A program made the translations under genes and the position numbers. DNA of 64,000 bases, taken from the NCBI GenBank assembly GCA_963722255.1, contig CAVRJO010000001.1:736001-800000 (forward strand), in the 5' to 3' direction. The stretch is from Candidatus Babeliales bacterium. GTDB taxonomy: Bacteria; Babelota; Babeliae; Babelales; JANWKD01. The first letter of the stretch is position 1, and every line of letters starts with the position of its first letter. The notes under the pieces are model-generated. The model was not told the origin of the DNA, ran no database searches, and saw nothing but the letters and a program-made list of their open reading frames with translations. Of this stretch, positions 52,626-63,081 are shown piece by piece.

Positions 52626-53237
52626 TTAGCTTCCTTTTGCAGCAAAAGGTATCTTTGAAGCAGCTAACGTTACGAGTGGCATTAAGCGTGCATTAAAAAG
52701 AGATGCTACTTCATTGCGGAAGAAGTATGATGCTATACTGGCAGCACTAAGTCCTAATCCGATAGCACCGAAAATTCTTTTGTAATCGTAGATAGTATAA
52801 TGATATCCTCTAATATCTTTATAAGAAAGATCACTATCATTAAGATAAATGTTTTTCCATACAGTATTACCTTCTGTTCTCCAAATAAGCTTAGTGAAAA
52901 AGCCGTTTCTTCTCACGGACAAATCATCATAATAGTATGTACCTTGTCTCTTCGCCTTGTTCAATAGCATTATTTTTTCTGAAATTCTATCACAACAATC
53001 CTTTCTTGTTGAATTAGATGGATTTTCAGCCAAAACTTTATTTACTTGCTCTTGAGAAGATATCCATGGTTTAACAGACATAGCTATACAATCTTGTGTA
53101 TATTGTTTGAATAATTCTTTAGAATCATGATAGCTATATCCTTCTTTAGTTAGCTTTTTCATTGCAAATGATTGCTGCACTGTAGTTCCCACGAGAATTA
53201 TAGTTGCAGCAATATATAATTTTAATACTATTTTCAT
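52626..53237 (-). CDS. Secreted protein with C-terminal membrane segment (paralog of 54404..54949)
   Basis: Near-identical signal peptide and C-terminus YDYKRIFGAIGLGLSAASIASYFFRNEVASLFNARLMPL. Confidence 0.75.
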   Translation of the reverse strand: MKIVLKLYIAATIILVGTTVQQSFAMKKLTKEGYSYHDSKELFKQYTQDCIAMSVKPWISSQEQVNKVLAENPSNSTRKDCCDRISEKIMLLNKAKRQGTYYYDDLSVRRNGFFTKLIWRTEGNTVWKNIYLNDSDLSYKDIRGYHYTIYDYKRIFGAIGLGLSAASIASYFFRNEVASLFNARLMPLVTLAASKIPFAAKGS

Positions 53238-53242
53238 AAATA

Positions 53243-54381
53243 CAGGACTTCCGCAGAGTATTTAAAGATTTGATCTAGACGTATTTTTAAAAAATAATAG
53301 ACTCTCCCAAAAAGCCTAATTCAAGGGAGAGCCTAAAATGATCATCGTTAATACTATAGCAACTTATCCATTTCTTACAATTCTTACAAATATTGGCAAA
53401 CGAAGTTTTGAGAATATGGGTAGGGTAATCAAAAAAAGCGGAGATACCATTAGCCGAATGTTACGGCCAGGTCATGAAAGCCTTGAACAATCAAAAAAAA
53501 TTGCACAACAAATTTTCGCTGATAAAAAAGAATTATTAGCAGTTATAGATGAAACGGCTATCAAAAAAATTCATTCTCAAATGATGGAAGGTACGGGATG
53601 GCTTTTTGATACTAAGATAGGCAGGTCGATTAATGCATACAAATTGATTATTGGTGCTATTTCTGATCGTAAGTTTGTTGTGCCTATAAATGCTGCTTTT
53701 ACTTTTGGTAAGGAATTTTATACAAATCCAAGCGAAGCTTTAAGAATTACTGTACAACATTTCATTAATACCGCTCAAAAACTTTTCCCTAATACACGAA
53801 TTATTGCTGTTTTAGATGGTGCATATGCTACTGTAAAGTATCTACAATGGGCTATTGAAAATAACATTGAAACTGAAGTGCGCATGCATAGTAATCGTGT
53901 TGTTGAGTACAAAGGAAAAAAGAAAAAGCTGCGTGAAATTAAAGAAATACGTCCAAAAGGCCGCCAAATGGCTCGAACTGTACAAGTTATTTGGCGCGGC
54001 CTTTCTTTATATATTACCGCTGTAAGGCGCATTGATAAGCATGGCAATGAAACAATTGTTTACCAAGCAGCAACCTATAAAGCTACTCCAAAACAACATG
54101 CTATGAATTATAAAAAGCGATGGGGCATAGAGAAATTAAATAGAACTACTAAGCAAAGTTTAGGTTTACAGGAATGTTTTTCTCGAAAAATAGTTACACA
54201 ATATGACCATATTTGTGCCGTGCTTTTAGCATATTCTCTCGTTCAATTGGAAATGAAAAAAAATGGTTATAAAAACGCAGAAACCGCTATCAGAGCTCTT
54301 AAGAAAAAAAATCCTGCTTTTTTAAATCGATGCATTACGGCTCTAGATCAAAACAATGCTAGTGTTTATGCGTAATTCCTG
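53243..54381 (+). mobile_element. IS701-like/IS4-superfamily insertion sequence
   Basis: TIR CAGGACTTCCGCA / TGCGTAATTCCTG; TAAATA repeated on both flanks (TSD 4-6 bp depending on where the ends are drawn). Confidence 0.8.
53338..54375 (+). CDS. DDE transposase
   Basis: VIDET, VLDGAY, YKKRWGIEKLNRTTKQSLGL. Confidence 0.88.
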   Translation: MIIVNTIATYPFLTILTNIGKRSFENMGRVIKKSGDTISRMLRPGHESLEQSKKIAQQIFADKKELLAVIDETAIKKIHSQMMEGTGWLFDTKIGRSINAYKLIIGAISDRKFVVPINAAFTFGKEFYTNPSEALRITVQHFINTAQKLFPNTRIIAVLDGAYATVKYLQWAIENNIETEVRMHSNRVVEYKGKKKKLREIKEIRPKGRQMARTVQVIWRGLSLYITAVRRIDKHGNETIVYQAATYKATPKQHAMNYKKRWGIEKLNRTTKQSLGLQECFSRKIVTQYDHICAVLLAYSLVQLEMKKNGYKNAETAIRALKKKNPAFLNRCITALDQNNASVYA

Positions 54382-54403
54382 TAAATACCTCATATTTTTA
54401 GTG

Positions 54404-54949
54404 TTAGCTTCTTTGAGCTAAAAATGGAACTTTCGAAATAGCTGAAGTTAGCAACGGCATTAAGCGTGCATTAAAAAGCGATGCTACTTCATTGCGGAAG
54501 AAATATGACGCTATACCGGCGGCACTAAGTCCTAATCCGATGGCACCATAGATTCGTTTGTAATCATAGGTATCAATATACATTGTATTAAAACAATGCG
54601 AAACGTTGTGCTCTTCTATACCTACTTGCTGCGTAAACCAACCAGTTCGAACACATGAAATACGCTTTGTTTTGTATACTTTAAATTCTTGTGCCCTTGT
54701 TCTCTTTCCTGAAACATAATCTAAATACTTTTTAGCTCCAGTTAAAAGCTCAAGCGCTGTAGCATCATTTTCGAACTTAGCTTTTTTTGCTTCAAATGCT
54801 TTCAAGATCTCTTGATCTGTTGCTCCTTGTCTTGCACCAAGTTGTTTACATGCAAGTGGATATGTCCACATATTCATTGCAAATGATTGTTGTACCATTC
54901 CAACAAGAATGATAGTTGCAGCAATATATAATTTTGTACTTATTTTCAT
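54404..54949 (-). CDS. Secreted J-like-domain protein (no HPD) with C-terminal membrane segment
   Basis: ACKQLGARQGATDQEILKAF. Confidence 0.7.
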   Translation of the reverse strand: MKISTKLYIAATIILVGMVQQSFAMNMWTYPLACKQLGARQGATDQEILKAFEAKKAKFENDATALELLTGAKKYLDYVSGKRTRAQEFKVYKTKRISCVRTGWFTQQVGIEEHNVSHCFNTMYIDTYDYKRIYGAIGLGLSAAGIASYFFRNEVASLFNARLMPLLTSAISKVPFLAQRS

Positions 54950-54987
54950 AAATTTTCCTTTTGTTTAAAAAATTAATTTTTTCGTTT

Positions 54988-55680
54988 CTAAGCTGCAACA
55001 GCAGCTTTTCTATAGTTATACCATACTACCGCTAATCCTAGCCCAATCGTGGCAACAATACCGATTCCTAAAGCCCATTTAAAACGTTGATTTCGAGGTG
55101 CCTCATGCGTCTCTCCATCTTCACGTTCTTGAATCTGTGAGAGTGCTTCCACAAGGTCTAGATCTTCCATTGAAGTAACAACTTTCTTGGCTGTCTCAAA
55201 TTCTTTCTCTCTATTATCTTGCTTTTTAATATGATTGGCAGCTTTAATACGATTTTTACGGCGCGCATTTCTTCGCTCAAGTCGCCTCGCACATCTTTCT
55301 TCAAAAAGCTTTTTTGCTGTGTATAAACTTTCACACTCTTCAGACATCAACAAAAGCTTTGAAAATTCCATTTTATTATCGTATGTTTTCAATGTATAAC
55401 ACAAATTCAATTGATCTTTATCGCCATTAGGCAAATATATCCAATATTTACCATCGATCCTAAAACCATTTTCTTTGATAAATTCATCATCAAAACTGAA
55501 TTCATTTTCATTGTCAAAGCACTGACCTTTTGAACTAGGGACTAAACCATTGGCAATACCATCTTCATCAATTTCTACTTCAGGAGTAGGTTGTTCCATG
55601 CTTATTACTTGGCCCATGCCAAACAAAAACATAAGGCCTAAAAAGATAATTGTTTTATTCATTTTCATATATAACCCCAT
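54988..55680 (-). CDS. Secreted protein with C-terminal membrane anchor
   Basis: Signal peptide VIS|ME; FKWALGIGIVATIGLGLAVVWYNYRK. Confidence 0.75.
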   Translation of the reverse strand: MGLYMKMNKTIIFLGLMFLFGMGQVISMEQPTPEVEIDEDGIANGLVPSSKGQCFDNENEFSFDDEFIKENGFRIDGKYWIYLPNGDKDQLNLCYTLKTYDNKMEFSKLLLMSEECESLYTAKKLFEERCARRLERRNARRKNRIKAANHIKKQDNREKEFETAKKVVTSMEDLDLVEALSQIQEREDGETHEAPRNQRFKWALGIGIVATIGLGLAVVWYNYRKAAVAA

Positions 55681-55707
55681 TTTTTTCTTTTAATTATTTT
55701 AGGGAGC

Positions 55708-56361
55708 TTAAACTGTAATAAAAAGTTTAAATTTCTTGCCAGTCAACAAATAATAAGCATTATTTATTTCAATTAATTGCCCAGGAGTTCTTGCTAAATC
55801 ATAATCCCATATACGCTGTGCCGTCTCTTCAATCTCTTGCACTGTTGCATCTGGACCAACGCCCAATATTCTACGTGCTTCTTTATCAGTCATTATCGTT
55901 TTGAGCTTTGGAACTTCGAATCTAAATTTTTTACCAGTCAATAGCTCAAATGCATTATTAATTTTTTTTATCTGCTTTTTAACAGCAATTTCAATCTCTT
56001 GCTCAGTTGCTCCATATCGAACTCCTAGTACTTTAAAAGCTTGTTCAGTTCCAGTAGTCTCGAGCTCTAAATCAAACGTTATACCTGCTGCATCATTAAT
56101 TCCAAAAAGCTTAAATTTCTCGCCCGTTAAGGCCTCATATGCCTTGACCACTCTGTTCCAAAAGCCAGGCAGCCTGATTACTTTTTGTGAGCGCAAAAGG
56201 TTAATTCTTGCTTCAATCTCTTCTTGTGTTGCATTTTCATTAACCTCTAAAAATTCACACGCATATGCTTTAGACATAATAACTTTTGCTGAAACAGTAG
56301 TGCCCATAACCATAAAAGTTAAAACCATAAGAACAACTATTTTATTTATTTTCATTTTCAT
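55708..56361 (-). CDS. Secreted protein with three tandem J-like repeats (no HPD)
   Basis: LEV/LGV-x3-AT-x-xEIE ... AY/AF-xxLTGxKF, three times. Confidence 0.7.
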   Translation of the reverse strand: MKMKINKIVVLMVLTFMVMGTTVSAKVIMSKAYACEFLEVNENATQEEIEARINLLRSQKVIRLPGFWNRVVKAYEALTGEKFKLFGINDAAGITFDLELETTGTEQAFKVLGVRYGATEQEIEIAVKKQIKKINNAFELLTGKKFRFEVPKLKTIMTDKEARRILGVGPDATVQEIEETAQRIWDYDLARTPGQLIEINNAYYLLTGKKFKLFITV

Positions 56362-56391
56362 AAAAACTCCATTAAGTTTGAAGCATAAAAA

Positions 56392-57132
56392 TTATGCTTT
56401 TTTTGTATACAAATTTTTTACAAAGTTAGATATTTTAACCAATCCGGGAACCACAAAAGAATCTTTCAATGCAATAACTTTAGCCGGGTGGTAAATCCAC
56501 ATACATGTTCCAAAACCTATACCTACAAAACCAAGACCAACTGACCATTTAAAAATAGTATTTTTTAACTGAACTCTCTTCTTTTCATTATAAATTTTTC
56601 TTACATTTTCCTCATCAGCTTTTGGAACTTTAACAAAACCATCTGTAGTTTTTATCGTAACTAATTCTTCTTCACCGTTTTGGTCAGTTCCAAAAAAATT
56701 GTCAAATAATTTCTGGGTAGATGCGCCAGCAAAAAATTGATGCATAGGGCTATCTTGAGGAAACATTTCTTGAATTTGTTTATTTAAGTTTTGATCATTC
56801 TTAAAGATTTCACAAAAAAATTGATTTGCAGCTTCTAGGCTTGGCTGATATGCCTTTTCTTTGCCAGTTATAATCGCATAGGCGCGTACGACTCTTTTAA
56901 AATTTTCCTCAGCATCGTTATCAGGATTTTTATCTGGGTGATATAGTAAAGCTAATTTTTTGAATGCAGCCTTAATTTCATCAGCATTAGCACCTTCATC
57001 AACACCAAGCAACGCATATGCTTCACTTCTGGCCATTTCTTCTAAAGGCTTTGTAAATTCCATACCTCTTGAATGACCAATACCACCTAAAAGCATAAGG
57101 CCTACAAGGGCAACTATTCTATTAATTTTCAT
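56392..57132 (-). CDS. Secreted J-domain protein with C-terminal membrane segment
   Basis: YALLGVDEGANADEIKAAFKKLALLYHPDKN; signal peptide SRG|ME. Confidence 0.88.
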   Translation of the reverse strand: MKINRIVALVGLMLLGGIGHSRGMEFTKPLEEMARSEAYALLGVDEGANADEIKAAFKKLALLYHPDKNPDNDAEENFKRVVRAYAIITGKEKAYQPSLEAANQFFCEIFKNDQNLNKQIQEMFPQDSPMHQFFAGASTQKLFDNFFGTDQNGEEELVTIKTTDGFVKVPKADEENVRKIYNEKKRVQLKNTIFKWSVGLGFVGIGFGTCMWIYHPAKVIALKDSFVVPGLVKISNFVKNLYTKKA

Positions 57133-59087: not shown

Positions 59088-59231
59088 CGCGAAGCCTGGC
59101 GAAGCCAGACGTAGTTTGCCGAGCCGGAAGGCCCCTCCGTCGCTCAAGGAGCTATGGCGGGCTTTCGCCGGATAATGTAGGGCGAAGCCAGTCGAAGCTT
59201 GCCAAGCAGGAAGGCGTGGATAAGCGTAGAC
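59088..59231. repeat. GC-rich REP-like repeats in the 3' trailer of tmRNA-1
   Basis: GGCGAAGCCAGACGTAGTTTGCCGAGCCGGAAGGCCC also occurs at 61332-61368; 59197-59231 occurs inverted near 61118-61153. Confidence 0.75.
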
Positions 59232-59599
59232 TGGTGGAGGCGATGGGAATCGAACCCATGTCCGCATTATGTTAAGCCCAAAGCAGCTACATGTTTAGTT
59301 TTTGAATATACCTTCGTTCAACCTCAAAAACACAGATTCCGAACAAAGGTTAGTTTGGTGCTTTTTTCAGGCTACTCAACTAAAAAACCTTGCCTAAAAG
59401 TCTTATCTTGTATTATACGAGTCAGTAAAGCTGATAAGCACGCTGCACTGACAAGAACTTCTGCAATTAACTTAAAGCTAATGCAGGAGCTGCTAAACCG
59501 AAGTTTGCATTTATGTTTTGACTGCTTTTTCCAAGTTCTCAGCCGAAACTCGACATGCTCTTTGCGCTCTCTATAACGCGTCGAAGCCTGTACGCCCCC
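59232..59599 (-). ncRNA. ssrA: tmRNA copy 1 (368 nt); tag ANFGLAAPALALS* at 59508-59467
   Basis: 5' GGGGGCGTACAGGCTTCGAC; 3' GGACATGGGTTCGATTCCCATCGCCTCCACCA; G3.U acceptor pair; ATAAAT-GCA resume context. Confidence 0.93.
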
Positions 59600-59629
59600 A
59601 GAAATTTCAAAGAATATATAACTATTCTA

Positions 59630-59659
59630 ATTGTATTTTTTATTGTATAAATAAGTCAA
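59630..59659 (-). promoter_or_regulatory. Sigma70-like promoter of tmRNA-1
   Basis: TTGACT-N18-TACAAT on the minus strand. Confidence 0.6.
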
Positions 59660-59707
59660 TAATTGAATATTTTTTTAAAGAGATTTATTGTTTGATAATA
59701 AAAAAAG

Positions 59708-60280
59708 TTATTTGGAACTAGCACGTAAATTAAGTTTGTAAAAGCCCCACAAGCTCGCTACGCATATTCCTATCAAGAGACCGGCTATGGCTTTTTGAGC
59801 ATGATAATAGATGGGCAAATATTCTGTTCTATAACTTTCCCGTGCCATTTGGTATGAATCTACATTTTCATAGATACTAACTTTATATGCTTTTGCGTAA
59901 GGAATTCCAATAAATAAGAACGTATCGAGCTCCTCTTTTATCGAACCCGATTGCCCATTAAATTTTATCTCAAATTGTTTTAAAAAATTTGATACATACG
60001 ATTGAGGATGCTTATTCAATAAAATTTCAACAGCAGATTTTAATGATTCAAATTTTTGCCTAGCCTCATGAGGCGTTAATTTATTATATTGCGCACGATC
60101 TGGATGAAATCTTAAAGCTAACAGCTTAAATTGATTCTTTATATTTTCGTCAGTCAAGCTATCTTGACTAAGCTCTAATATTTCACAAGCCTCTTTCCAG
60201 GTTAATTTTGAATTCATTGCCTGCATAGAACTAATGCTGAAAACAAGTATTAATATGGCAAATAGATTTGTTTTTTTCAT
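59708..60280 (-). CDS. Secreted J-domain protein with C-terminal membrane segment
   Basis: EACEILEL...FKLLALRFHPDR; signal peptide MQA|MN. Confidence 0.85.
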   Translation of the reverse strand: MKKTNLFAILILVFSISSMQAMNSKLTWKEACEILELSQDSLTDENIKNQFKLLALRFHPDRAQYNKLTPHEARQKFESLKSAVEILLNKHPQSYVSNFLKQFEIKFNGQSGSIKEELDTFLFIGIPYAKAYKVSIYENVDSYQMARESYRTEYLPIYYHAQKAIAGLLIGICVASLWGFYKLNLRASSK

Positions 60281-60432
60281 ATATTTTTCCCTTTTTATAT
60301 ATTTCTTTTTCATAACTATAGATTATCAAATTAACCAAAAAAGTCAATATTCAATTTGTAATTAACTATAATCAATTGAGAAAATCAGAACTATTGCAGA
60401 AAAATAATTTGACTGTTCTTTTTTTTTGAAAA

Positions 60433-61029
60433 TTATCTGCTCCAGAGTGAACTGAAACAGGTAGGGCAATGATAATGCCATAAGGCACCAAAGCCTATAA
60501 TGAAAGGAATTGAAAAGAGAAACTTTGCTTTAAGGCAATATACAGATTTTGTTTTAATATAAACATTCCAGCCTTCTTCTGTTTTGGCGAGCGCTTCAAG
60601 AAGCGATTGGTCTTCGTCCTCAGGACTGTCTTCAACTACACCAATTACTTTTTTACAGGCAAAAAGATTTGCTTTTAAATTGTGTATCCCATAAACAAAT
60701 TCAAACGTATTAACATTCTTTGATAACCAATAACCCAAAAAACTATATCGTTTAGTCTCTTGTAAAAAAACTCTTTTCTCAGAATTATATTCAATTATAG
60801 AAATATTATTTCTTTTTCGCTCTGCTGCAAGAGATCGTAAAGCCTCCTTGTTTTCAGAAGATTGCGGAAAATAACCACTCAGCTGATGTGTTTTTTGAGC
60901 GTTCTCAAATAATTCACTCAAAAACATCCATTGTCGCTCTTGACGCTTTTTCTCTTCCATAGCCTCTAACAATGAATAAGACAAAATAAAAAATAAGGCA
61001 CAAATAAAGGATAGAATGTATTTTTTCAT
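60433..61029 (-). CDS. Secreted protein with C-terminal membrane segment
   Basis: Signal peptide LEA|ME; FLFSIPFIIGFGALWHY. Confidence 0.72.
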   Translation of the reverse strand: MKKYILSFICALFFILSYSLLEAMEEKKRQERQWMFLSELFENAQKTHQLSGYFPQSSENKEALRSLAAERKRNNISIIEYNSEKRVFLQETKRYSFLGYWLSKNVNTFEFVYGIHNLKANLFACKKVIGVVEDSPEDEDQSLLEALAKTEEGWNVYIKTKSVYCLKAKFLFSIPFIIGFGALWHYHCPTCFSSLWSR

Positions 61030-61109
61030 GGTATTTAAAATTTTTGAATTTTTGTTAATGCGCGAATAGTCGATCCTTCGCTTTTAGGGTAAAACCTCGA
61101 AGTATTATA

Positions 61110-61382
61110 AAGCTTCCGCCTACGCTTATCCATGCTTTCCAGCTTGGCAAGCTACGTCGGACAAGTCTTTGGACAATCTTCGCCTCATCTTGCTGGCGGC
61201 AGCCAATCGTAGCCGTAGGTCAACTTCGTAGTAGTCCAGTCTTCGCTTGCAGTGGAATAACTTCGAAGTAAAATTGAGCTTCGACGGACAGACTTCGTTT
61301 ATATAACCAAATTACAGCTCATTAAAAGATTGGCGAAGCCAGACGTAGTTTGCCGAGCCGGAAGGCCCGGATAAACGAAGTC
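61110..61382. repeat. GC-rich REP-like repeats in the 3' trailer of tmRNA-2
   Basis: Shares blocks with 59088-59231; multiple CTTCG/CGAAG hairpin motifs. Confidence 0.7.
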
Positions 61383-61822
61383 TGGTGGAGGCGATGGGAA
61401 TCGAACCCATGTCCGCAACATATCAAGCTCAAAGCACGCTACATGTTTAGTTTTCGAATATACTGTGCCAAACCTCGAAAACAGAATATTTAAGCACAGC
61501 CCAGTTCAGTATTTTTTCTAGTTACACTCCTGGAAGAATTCTTACTAGAAAGTCTTATCTTGTATTATACGTGTCAGCGCAACTGATAAGCACGCCTTGC
61601 TGACAAGTTTTCAAATAGCTTTAAGCTTATTACGCTGCAGCTGCGGCACTCCAAGTGCCGAATGCATTTGCGCTAACATAGCCTAAATGTGCTAATGAAG
61701 AATCGCCTTTTACAGCGTTTGCATTTTTTGCATTTATAGTTTGACCGCTTTTTCCAAGTTCTCAGCCGAAACTCGACATGCTCTTTGACCCATCAATACC
61801 ACGTCGAAGCCTGTACGCCCCC
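61383..61822 (-). ncRNA. ssrA: tmRNA copy 2 (440 nt); tag AKNANAVKGDSSLAHLGYVSANAFGTWSAAAAA** at 61731-61630
   Basis: Same tRNA-like ends as copy 1; ATAAAT-GCA resume context; open frame to tandem TAA TAA. Confidence 0.93.
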
Positions 61823-61851
61823 AAAATTTCAAAGAAATATACTTTATTTTT

Positions 61852-61880
61852 AGAATAACAATGCATTGACAAAATGTCAA
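61852..61880 (-). promoter_or_regulatory. Sigma70-like promoter of tmRNA-2
   Basis: TTGACA-N17-TATTCT with extended -10 TG on the minus strand. Confidence 0.65.
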
Positions 61881-61897
61881 AAATACCTGTTATTTTC

Positions 61898-63081
61898 CTT
61901 AACACCTGACAAAATTTAACACTCATCAAAGACTCTGTTTTGCAAAAAGTGTATACTTTGTGAAAAACAAAGGAGTAAATAAGGTGAGAATGATGGGTGG
62001 ATCAATAATACACTTGGCAAAAGTTATCGAAGAAGATTTAGCAGAGAGAGATATACGTTTAAGCAAGCCACAAAGGATAGGTTTGGCAGATTTGCATCAG
62101 CAGCATCAGTAATAACATGTCGCAATGTTAACACATCAGAATTAGCAACAGTGCTGCCAAGAAAAGTCAAAAGTGATGAGGAGCGTTATCGCTATATTAA
62201 TCGTTGGCTTGCCAATGATAAAATTGATTGTGATACGTTACTAGAAGGCTTTATCCCTGAATTAATAGAACTTATACATGCAAATGGCCAGATCATTGTT
62301 TTATCAATGGATCAAAGTCAAATCAATAAAGAATTTGAATGTCTTATGGTTTCATTGCGAATTGGAGAACGTGCTATTCCTGTTGCATGGCGAGTAATTA
62401 AAACGCAAGGAGAAATTGGCTTTACCATTCAAAAACAACTGCTTGAGGCGGTGTTTGCTAACATACCAAGCTATGCAAAAATTATTTTAATGGCGGATAG
62501 ATTCTATGGGAATCCTGCGCTTATCCAATTATGTCAAAGTTTCAAATGGCGATACCGCATTCGCTTGAAAGGTAATCTTATTCTTTTTCATCATGGTGGG
62601 GAATTGAGTTCTGGCGAGCTTATCAGATTAAAACAAACATCGTTGTGCAATGTTCAGTTGACATTATAATTCTGGCGTTACAACTAACATTGGTGCACTA
62701 CAAGATGAAGGCAAAGATGAACCTTGGATCATTGCTATGGATTGTGTTCCTACCGAATATAAAGTTCTTGATTATGGCATGCGATGGTCTATTGAGCCTA
62801 TGTTCTCAGACTTTAAATCAAGAGGCTTTGATATCACTACTACTCAGTTACGCCATGCAGAACGAATAGAACGTCTTATTCTTGTTTTAAGTGTTGCTTA
62901 TTATTGGGCTGTTTCCACCGGCATGCAGCCAGATCTTGAGCGTGCAAAACGTTCTAAAAAAAAACTGCGCGCAGTTTAACTTCCTTTTTCAAAAAAGGTA
63001 TTCGCTTTCTTCTGAAAGCCGCACTGTCATTGCTGGAAATTCCCCCTTTATGGCTTACTTTTAAAATTGTCAGGTGTTAAG
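61898..63081 (+). mobile_element. IS4-family insertion sequence with fragmented transposase
   Basis: TIR CTTAACACCTGACAA / TTGTCAGGTGTTAAG; GTTATTTTC duplicated at 61889-61897 and 63082-63090. Confidence 0.85.
61990..63080 (+). pseudogene. IS4-family transposase in several frames
   Basis: LSMDQS, LMADRFY and YGMRWSIEPMFSDFKSRGF in different frames; C-terminal SFFKKGIRFL frame starts after an A9 run. Confidence 0.8.

Follow-up and report, generated by a model that had tools for sequence, protein, structure and literature searches.

The stretch of DNA considered here, referred to as the window, comprises 64,000 nucleotides (nt) of a Candidatus Babeliales bacterium (GenBank assembly GCA_963722255.1, contig CAVRJO010000001.1, positions 736,001 to 800,000), and carries two complete genes for transfer-messenger RNA (tmRNA; gene ssrA) in tandem. 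The Babeliales, which infect protists, belong to the phylum Dependentiae, formerly TM6; the bacterium considered here is amoeba-associated. The genome under study (G000) measures 1.62 Mb in two contigs and is 93% complete, with 2.55% contamination. A first-pass annotation, made from the letters of the window, had proposed two full-length ssrA genes of 368 and 440 nt on the minus strand, and both ARAGORN and Infernal (model RF00023) recovered them at exactly these coordinates. They are the only RF00023 matches in the whole genome above the gathering score of 47 bits, and are named here after the lengths of the tags that they encode.

61383..61822, minus strand: ssrA-long, one-piece tmRNA of 440 nt (ARAGORN; RF00023, 147.8 bits, E 4.5e-58)
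61627..61731, minus strand: tag frame of ssrA-long, AKNANAVKGDSSLAHLGYVSANAFGTWSAAAAA followed by TAA TAA, with the resume codon at gene position 92
59232..59599, minus strand: ssrA-short, one-piece tmRNA of 368 nt, the extra paralog (ARAGORN; RF00023, 155.4 bits, E 2.7e-61)
59467..59508, minus strand: tag frame of ssrA-short, ANFGLAAPALALS followed by TAA, 13 amino acids (aa)

Both genes span model positions 1-374 of 374, and every modelled pair is canonical (86/86 in ssrA-short and 85/85 in ssrA-long). The tRNA-Ala-like domain of ssrA-short has all seven pairs of helix H1, including G3-U, all five pairs of the T arm, and an encoded CCA. ssrA-long has the full model match, tRNA-like domain, tag frame and helices expected of a tmRNA, and the tRNA-like ends, with their G3.U pair and CCA, are the same in the two copies, as had been claimed. 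The sequence before the resume codon had also been called identical; the region of pseudoknot 1 (PK1) is indeed the same, but a few bases differ. Three stems that were said to keep pairing through compensatory changes do so, namely H2a (CGCGUUAU/AUAAUGCG versus CGUGGUAU/AUGUUGCG), PK2 (GUCAGU/ACUGAC versus GUCAGC/GCUGAC) and the example taken from PK4. In ssrA-short, AUAAAU precedes the GCA at gene position 92, and 13 codons are followed by UAA. Averaged over alignment columns, the two copies agree at 81%, and outside the tag the figure is 79%; their similarity begins about 20 nt before the mature 5' end and ends about 50 nt past the CCA.

The canonical one-piece tmRNA (E. coli SsrA, RF00023) shares with both genes the acceptor G3.U, T arm, CCA, PK1, a GCA resume codon after AUAAAU, a stop in or near helix 5, PK2 to PK4 and an SmpB encoded in the genome. 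The differences are that this genome has two diverged genes rather than one, that the usual reader, ClpXP, was not found in it, and that the tags are 33 and 13 aa, the commonest length being given as 10 aa in PMC11915505.

A second organism carries the same pair. Four loci were recovered when metagenomes were searched with a degenerate PK1 pattern (the exact 28-nt PK1 string had no match in metagenomes), and among them was L113, an independent metagenome contig of 5.6 kb. Its two tmRNA genes lie on one strand in the same order as in the window: a long gene of 428 nt (153.1 bits; tag AKNAVDHVNGRINAFNGSFLGTNASCVAAA, resume at position 92), a spacer of 401 nt with no convincing open reading frame (ORF), and a short gene of 365 nt at 565-929 (160.4 bits; tag ANFGLAAA, then TAA TAA). 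A photolyase-like gene upstream of the pair is syntenic between L113 and G000. Tree, alignment and signature positions all group short with short (83/83) and long with long (97/98). Since the orthologs are 88% (short) and 91% (long) identical and the closest paralog match reaches only 75%, the duplication predates the split between G000 and L113.

The first-pass annotation had raised the concern that the two genes might stem from a chimeric join of two strains. The metagenome-type assembly, with its two contigs and 2.55% contamination, would allow for an artefact in which two strains or species were joined in one contig, and another Babeliales genome (G040) has two near-identical ssrA copies at contig ends that look like strain mixing. 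Here such an artefact is scarcely credible: L113, an independent assembly, has the tandem pair too, a similarity of only 75-79% puts the copies far past strain level, the DNA between them is unique, and analogous pairs lie on single contigs in six genomes of another family (f19), one of which (G186) is itself a single contig. A 246-nt contig from a soil metagenome matches 59410-59655 with 0 differences, and no contig there bridged both genes; among the sequencing runs searched, only two soil-metagenome contig sets had a small share of the words (0.08 and 0.05).

The tags of the two genes had been described as unrelated. That view is contradicted by the alignment, in which a gap of about 72 nt falls inside the tag frame and makes the short tag a deletion derivative of the long one. 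The long tag ends in S-A-N-A-F-G-T-W-S-A-A-A-A-A and the short tag begins with A-N-F-G-L-A-A; as judged from the aligned frames, the short tag consists of the opening residues fused directly to the C-terminal core of the long tag, the first two thirds of which have otherwise gone. With regard to the proposed lengths, 13 aa stands for the short tag, and 33 aa for the long tag is disputed by ARAGORN, which begins three codons later (position 101, 30 aa). The 33-aa reading is favoured because ssrA-short and the long copy of L113 both resume at position 92. A 9-nt tandem repeat (AAATGCAAA, twice) lies across the resume codon of ssrA-long (61720-61737; gene positions 86-103) and provides two in-frame GCA candidates, the first giving 33 aa and the second 30 aa.

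Tags of relatives in the family and of other paired genomes were read from the conserved resume position. A relative of the same genus (G001, 99% complete) has a single ssrA of 425 nt whose tag, ANTVKSDVPAALFGSIQNSVFGAQAAACA, is homologous to the long tag of G000, and long tags of 28-40 residues with open frames occur in all six family members. In the single tmRNA of G002, from the same family (L037:27-441), the position homologous to the resume codon holds GTA (Val) and not GCA, and ARAGORN reads the tag as VESNDSLFAGFMPQQPILAEAGLVLGLA. As to the short tag, its first seven codons (ANFGLAA) are common to G000 and L113, and this core is conserved at the nucleotide level, so that the second copy does have a conserved tag frame. 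In G000 the GCG-TAA-TAA end has been lost and the frame runs on to PALALS, and helix 5 has been rebuilt as a strong hairpin around the new stop. The ancestral short tag, as reconstructed from these sequences, is ANFGLAAA, a canonical end, followed by the double stop. A canonical non-polar tag end (..AA, ..FA, ..VA) is absent from the short tag of G000, which ends in ALS; this concerns the degron and not membership of the RNA family.

Each gene is preceded by a promoter-like site and a leader of its own.

61852..61880, minus strand: promoter of ssrA-long, TTGACA-17-TATTCT with an extended TG -10 (consensus scan 10/12)
61823..61841, minus strand: 5' leader of ssrA-long, TTCTTTGAAATTTT, reaching the mature 5' end
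59630..59659, minus strand: promoter of ssrA-short, TTGACT-18-TACAAT (consensus scan 10/12)
59600..59620, minus strand: conserved 5' leader of ssrA-short

In DNA so rich in AT the promoter scan is not significant by itself (11 sites versus 8.7 +/- 3.4 in shuffles), and the weight of the earlier claim of one promoter per copy, which we uphold, rests on conservation in the orthologs. Both hexamers of the ssrA-short promoter are the same in G000 and L113, while the spacer between them has diverged; for ssrA-long, the -35 and the extended -10 are kept in L113 and G001, and the -10 reads TATTCT in G000 and TAGAAT in L113. The leader TTCTTTGAAATTTYT, up to the mature 5' end, is common to both copies of G000, both copies of L113 and G001. 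It is presumed to be the substrate context of RNase P, with a putative role in processing.

How selection has acted on each copy was judged from the helices, for which 86 pairs were defined by hand on ssrA-short from folds of sub-domains (H1, H2a-d, both stems of PK1-PK4, and the T arm). The stem counts are from ortholog comparisons only; MAFFT misaligns PK3/PK4 when long and short genes are compared in a multi-sequence alignment. An RNAalifold fold of six family sequences was rejected, being non-canonical and devoid of the T arm. Between ssrA-short and its L113 ortholog, 71 of the 86 pairs are unchanged, 8 are kept with a change on one side, 4 are kept with changes on both, and 3, at helix ends, are non-canonical; 12 of the 15 changed pairs are still paired in the ortholog. 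Placing 21 changes at random paired positions with the observed substitution spectrum broke 13.1 +/- 2.2 pairs, and 0/20,000 simulations had three or fewer broken. Of the 85 pairs of ssrA-long, 76 are the same in its ortholog, 2 and 3 have changed and still pair, and 4 no longer pair; a fraction of 0.015 of the simulations broke that few pairs or fewer.

Other measures put the two copies on an equal footing. In a 58-row alignment of Babeliales tmRNAs, ssrA-short and ssrA-long each depart from 3 of the 110 columns that are at least 90% conserved, and both lie mid-field among single-copy genes in this respect. The differences between them fall on 2/109 conserved, 20/129 intermediate and 68/120 variable columns. 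None of the relative-rate tests with six outgroups was significant: 31 versus 34 unique changes were counted with G002 (p = 0.8), and the largest contrast, with G001, was 42 versus 31 (p = 0.24). With an orthologous pair in a second organism, compensatory stems, conserved promoters and equal rates, purifying selection on both genes is well supported at the level of sequence, in agreement with the first-pass annotation, which had taken both to be under selection.

The loss of the double stop and the ALS end might still mark the onset of pseudogenisation of the short copy in G000, at a stage when the RNA looks intact. The ortholog does end in AAA with a double stop where G000 continues to PALALS, and in the tree the path between the short orthologs (0.17) is somewhat longer than that between the long ones (0.12). 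We regard decay as improbable, given that helix 5 was rebuilt around the new stop, that all 86 modelled pairs are canonical, that only 3 of 110 conserved columns are off, that there is no rate excess, and that the promoter is intact; moreover, where ClpXP is lacking there is no obvious need for a tag to end in Ala-Ala.

Among 41 Babeliales genomes examined with RF00023, 37 have one ssrA, two have none and two (G000 and G040) have two. The first-pass annotation had said that its reading would fall if relatives had one ssrA and the second copy showed no conserved tag frame. The first half applies to G001, which has one gene, of the long type; the second half does not apply, and the reading is not refuted on this ground. 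Because the tag of G001 is homologous to the long tag and all family tags are long, ssrA-long is taken as the ortholog and ssrA-short as the extra gene. Both copies fall inside their own family, with support of 99/96 in a 60-row tree and 95/97 in a 15-row family tree. These trees do not resolve how G001, G002, the short pair and the long pair branched from one another (long plus G001, 64/75), and with p = 0.29 in the approximately unbiased (AU) test for a short-plus-long clade, the duplication may have come before or after the split from G001. In its H2 region, G001 has derived states in common with the long copies, which hints that G001 lost its short copy.

A horizontal origin from family f11, whose member G125 gives the best full-length BLAST match (72%), was rejected by both trees. 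More generally, the second gene could have come from another organism or on a phage, plasmid or island. IS4-type transposase genes and paralogous genes with hydrophobic N-termini surround the locus, a dispersed repeat stands behind both ssrA genes, and second ssrA alleles on plasmids as well as ssrA in phages are on record (PMC4131195). A mobile origin is nonetheless very improbable: the short copy sits within its own family in both trees, the best foreign match over the full length is only 72%, no integrase is present, the L113 spacer is 401 nt without a convincing ORF, and both flanks are syntenic with relatives. On the downstream side lies the RNase G gene, as in G003 (from another genus) and G004, where it and ssrA stand tail to tail. 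G000 has this same gene, now separated from ssrA by an insertion of 6.7 kb that consists of insertion sequence (IS) elements and of paralogous genes whose products have a hydrophobic N-terminal stretch. On the upstream side, the gene next to the ssrA of G001 is the gene next to ssrA-long. Judged by gene order, the locus is ancestral.

The first-pass annotation had noted the lack of an integrase between the copies, and Pfam detected none among the 13 ORFs scanned around the locus. Two ORFs lie between the genes, one with a J domain and one with no Pfam match.

59708..60313, minus strand: ORF of 201 aa with a J domain (Pfam DnaJ, E 5e-10) and hydrophobic N- and C-terminal stretches
60433..61029, minus strand: ORF of 198 aa with hydrophobic N- and C-terminal stretches and no Pfam family

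Both are later insertions, the DnaJ ORF being absent from the L113 spacer. The locus resembles the ssrA-integrated islands and prophages described by Williams ('Traffic at the tmRNA gene') and in Islander (PMC4383910) in that it is a hot spot, where genes of foreign appearance, IS elements and repeats have collected behind ssrA. The difference is that integration at ssrA duplicates only a 3' fragment and brings an integrase, whereas the window has two full-length genes unaccompanied by any integrase; a 3' ssrA fragment bounding an integrase-carrying element, the mark of an island, was not found at this locus.

The inserted genes have features of their own. Within 52626-57132 and 59708-61029 the window encodes paralogous small proteins with a hydrophobic N-terminus and a common hydrophobic C-terminal tail, YGAIGLGLSAA.IASYFFRNEVASLFNARLMPL. 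Three of the small paralogs have J domains (55708-56361, 56392-57132 and 59708-60313), and these J-domain paralogs could be host-directed effectors. IS4-type transposase genes are interleaved with them (53338-54375, and fragments at 62151-62979).

Behind both tmRNA genes there is a structured trailer.

61326..61385, minus strand: 3' trailer hairpin of ssrA-long, pairing with the CCA end (CCAGAC...GUCUGG), -24 kcal/mol, z -4.36
59175..59234, minus strand: 3' trailer hairpin behind ssrA-short, a diverged copy, -17.6 kcal/mol, z -4.07; repeat family D4
59097..59134, minus strand: partial trailer element, identical at 38/38 positions to the element behind ssrA-long
61120-61156: trailer element, inverted copy

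The element is GC-rich, about 55 nt long, has the core TATCCNNGCCTTCNGGCTNGGCAA, begins at the CCA of both ssrA genes and folds as a three-tier hairpin. Of its 18 core copies in the genome, seven stand exactly 10 nt past the 3' end of a tRNA or tmRNA gene. It belongs to a dispersed repeat family and is near-identical in G003 and L113.

Pairs of long and short ssrA genes are not confined to G000 and L113. RF00023 scans covered 191 of 261 Babeliales genomes, and 10 of them gave two matches above the cut-off. Besides G000, we accepted six long-plus-short pairs, each on a single contig and all in family f19: four in genus g102 (G185, G186, G191 and G192), where the pair occurs in four of the eight species, and two in other genera (G193 and G195). 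The long genes are 425-468 nt and the short genes 357-369 nt, with tags such as the following.

G186: long tag AEDAKVEANYSSIPTSLFSFNDFAQSGPVFA, short tag ATPVVAAQA
G192: long tag AEDAYVAVPNVGASVSALNLAVAQAPVALAFA, short tag ATNVAFA
G185: long tag of 34 aa, short tag AADAVVAQA
G193: long tag of 46 aa, short tag ATVNSAAFTA

The long type is present in all eight g102 species. In the tree the long genes group in a single clade (100/99), and the short genes in a second one (95/94) that also takes in one outsider on a long branch. This duplication was therefore separate from that of G000 and outlasted speciation. All seven pairs with both genes on the same strand (G000, L113, G185, G186, G191, G192 and G195) have the long gene upstream. 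Three further genomes with two matches were set aside. The second ssrA genes of G183 and G223 look foreign because of their odd acceptor start (GGGGATG), very long branches and odd base make-up, G183 being a 2.4-Mb bin. The near-identical copies of G040 lie at contig ends (C34:7074-7459 and C78:22-408; tags ADQMNVGRGSAGFVAAA and ADQMNVGLGSTGFVAVA) and probably represent two strains in one bin, which has 5% contamination.

In L113 the model of permuted tmRNA (RF04321, tmRNA_permuted) also matches, with 73.5 bits against a cut-off of 47, at 812-1394 on the minus strand, over the junction of the two tandem genes; in the window it reaches only 20.1 bits. As in a permuted two-piece tmRNA, the 3' part of the long gene is followed by the 5' part of the short gene, and these together score as permuted; the difference is that the genes of G000 and L113 are both complete one-piece genes. 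The permuted call in L113 is an artefact of the adjacency of two intact genes.

A single SmpB would have to serve both RNAs. One smpB was found in G000 (C2:357004-357438, 171 bits, an open frame of 158 aa), and likewise one in each of the five f19 pair genomes checked. Among the proteases, G000 has one intact Lon gene and a second copy broken by stop codons, and two genes of the FtsH family, one of them a 918-aa frame with two matching stretches.

C1:249653-251941; C2:421164-423040; C1:209023-211215; C1:229108-231648: protease genes of G000 (Lon, FtsH family)

In this genome, which is 93% complete, ClpX had no match (best 30.8 bits versus a cut-off of 370.75), nor did ClpP or HslV. The first-pass annotation had relied on ClpX reading a C-terminal Ala-Ala. 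This premise does not apply here, since no more than 3 of 261 Babeliales genomes gave a ClpP match, the suspect bin G183 among them. The long Lon-directed tag of Mycoplasma and Mesoplasma (Gur and Sauer 2008, as cited in PMC8403727) offers a parallel, the nearest documented case being M. pneumoniae. In that species, which has no ClpXP, the tag is 27 residues long, with many hydrophobic and aromatic ones; tagged proteins are degraded mainly by Lon, and tag-directed degradation is reported there not to be essential for growth. G000 is likewise reduced, host-dependent and without ClpXP, has Lon and FtsH as ATP-dependent proteases, and encodes a tag of unusual length in which hydrophobic and aromatic residues abound. 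The difference is that mycoplasmas are described there with one tmRNA, and G000 keeps a paralog with a truncated tag beside the long-tag gene. By analogy, the long tags of Babeliales are probably Lon-type degrons.

We consider it quite probable that an old tandem duplication of ssrA within this Babeliales lineage left two separately transcribed, functional tmRNAs, one with a long and one with a short tag, that share one SmpB. The two RNAs would have kept the same alanine identity elements and four-pseudoknot build. The upstream copy would have retained the 33-aa tag of the lineage, and the downstream copy would have lost about 72 nt inside the tag frame, giving ANFGLAAA in the ancestor and, after loss of the double stop, ANFGLAAPALALS in G000. 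Both would rescue stalled ribosomes, one RNA giving the rescued protein the full tag and the other just the C-terminal core. Given that ClpXP is missing from the order, the readers of the tags would most likely be Lon and/or FtsH, as in mycoplasmas, and the N-terminal extension of about 20 residues in the long tag could alter the speed of removal, the protease or the adaptor of the tagged protein. The sequences of G000 and its relatives show that both genes are intact, that the duplication is old, that selection acts on both copies, that each has its own promoter, that there is one SmpB and which proteases are encoded; expression, alanine charging, tagging and any divergence in the fate of tagged proteins are inferred. 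As related bacteria keep similar pairs, both copies appear to be in use.

Several points weigh against this interpretation. The exact pair was found in only one other organism (L113), and most Babeliales have one tmRNA. G001, at 99% completeness, has only the long type, so that at least one close lineage can do without the short copy. Pairs occur in 0 of 41 f3 and 0 of 35 f12 genomes, whether the tag is short or long. The short tag of G000 ends in ALS, where 25 of 27 ARAGORN tags (from 29 loci of relatives) end in A and the ortholog ends in AAA, and this end could be the first step in the decay of the tagging function. The G000 sequences themselves, and not an independent model, were the basis on which the tested helices were drawn by hand, and among the sequencing runs searched there was no RNA run containing the locus.

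Plain redundancy, in which both tmRNAs work and the difference in tag is without consequence, the extra tmRNA being useful for dosage or simply not yet lost, is a rather unlikely but serious alternative. It fits the identical tRNA-like domains and the single SmpB, the survival of G001 without a short copy, the presence of only the long type in four of eight g102 species, and the reported dispensability of tag-directed degradation for growth in M. pneumoniae (PMC8403727). What redundancy does not predict is that the short-tag copy stays downstream of the long one in seven of seven same-strand pairs, across at least two independent duplications, that the ANFGLAA core is kept at the nucleotide level, or that long frames of 28-40 codons are open in all six family members. 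Because of these regularities, tag length seems to matter.

More tentatively, and only as a possibility, the interpretation of two functional tmRNAs might be extended to a two-tmRNA system that evolved at least twice in ClpXP-less Babeliales, in which separately regulated long Lon-type and minimal tags, served by one SmpB, would give selectable fates or speeds (Lon versus an FtsH paralog, or different stages of infection).

Extra ssrA alleles are themselves on record. A survey of the tmRNA Website (Hudson, Lau and Williams 2014, PMC4131195) lists, in its accessible part, second and third ssrA alleles and phages with ssrA, and that part holds no list or analysis of pairs. The G000 pair differs from such alleles in being chromosomal, tandem, vertically inherited, kept across species and systematically different in tag length. 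A literature search, with supplements and subscription-only papers outside its scope, found no description of a conserved pair of long-tag and short-tag tmRNAs; a search for two or second tmRNA or ssrA genes matched only a paper on a suspected mixed assembly of Hydrogenivirga, and the multiple-copy terms tried did not occur in the 2025 tmRNA database paper. In practice, two ssrA calls in one genome should not be put down automatically to contamination or to the scar of an island, and tandem ssrA genes can be mis-called as permuted tmRNA.

A duplication model of gene permutation is said to have been proposed for tmRNA, with a tandem pair as the needed intermediate, and the pair described here shows how a permuted two-piece gene could arise. 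The use of the tmRNA tag, beyond freeing the ribosome, is still debated, and to our knowledge almost every bacterium offers only one tag for study. A natural pair that is maintained by selection, and whose members are distinguished chiefly by their tags, provides a test of tag length and content that nature has already set up, especially in the absence of ClpXP. If the more tentative two-tmRNA system is true, the cell could choose between two fates, or two speeds of degradation, for the proteins that it rescues.

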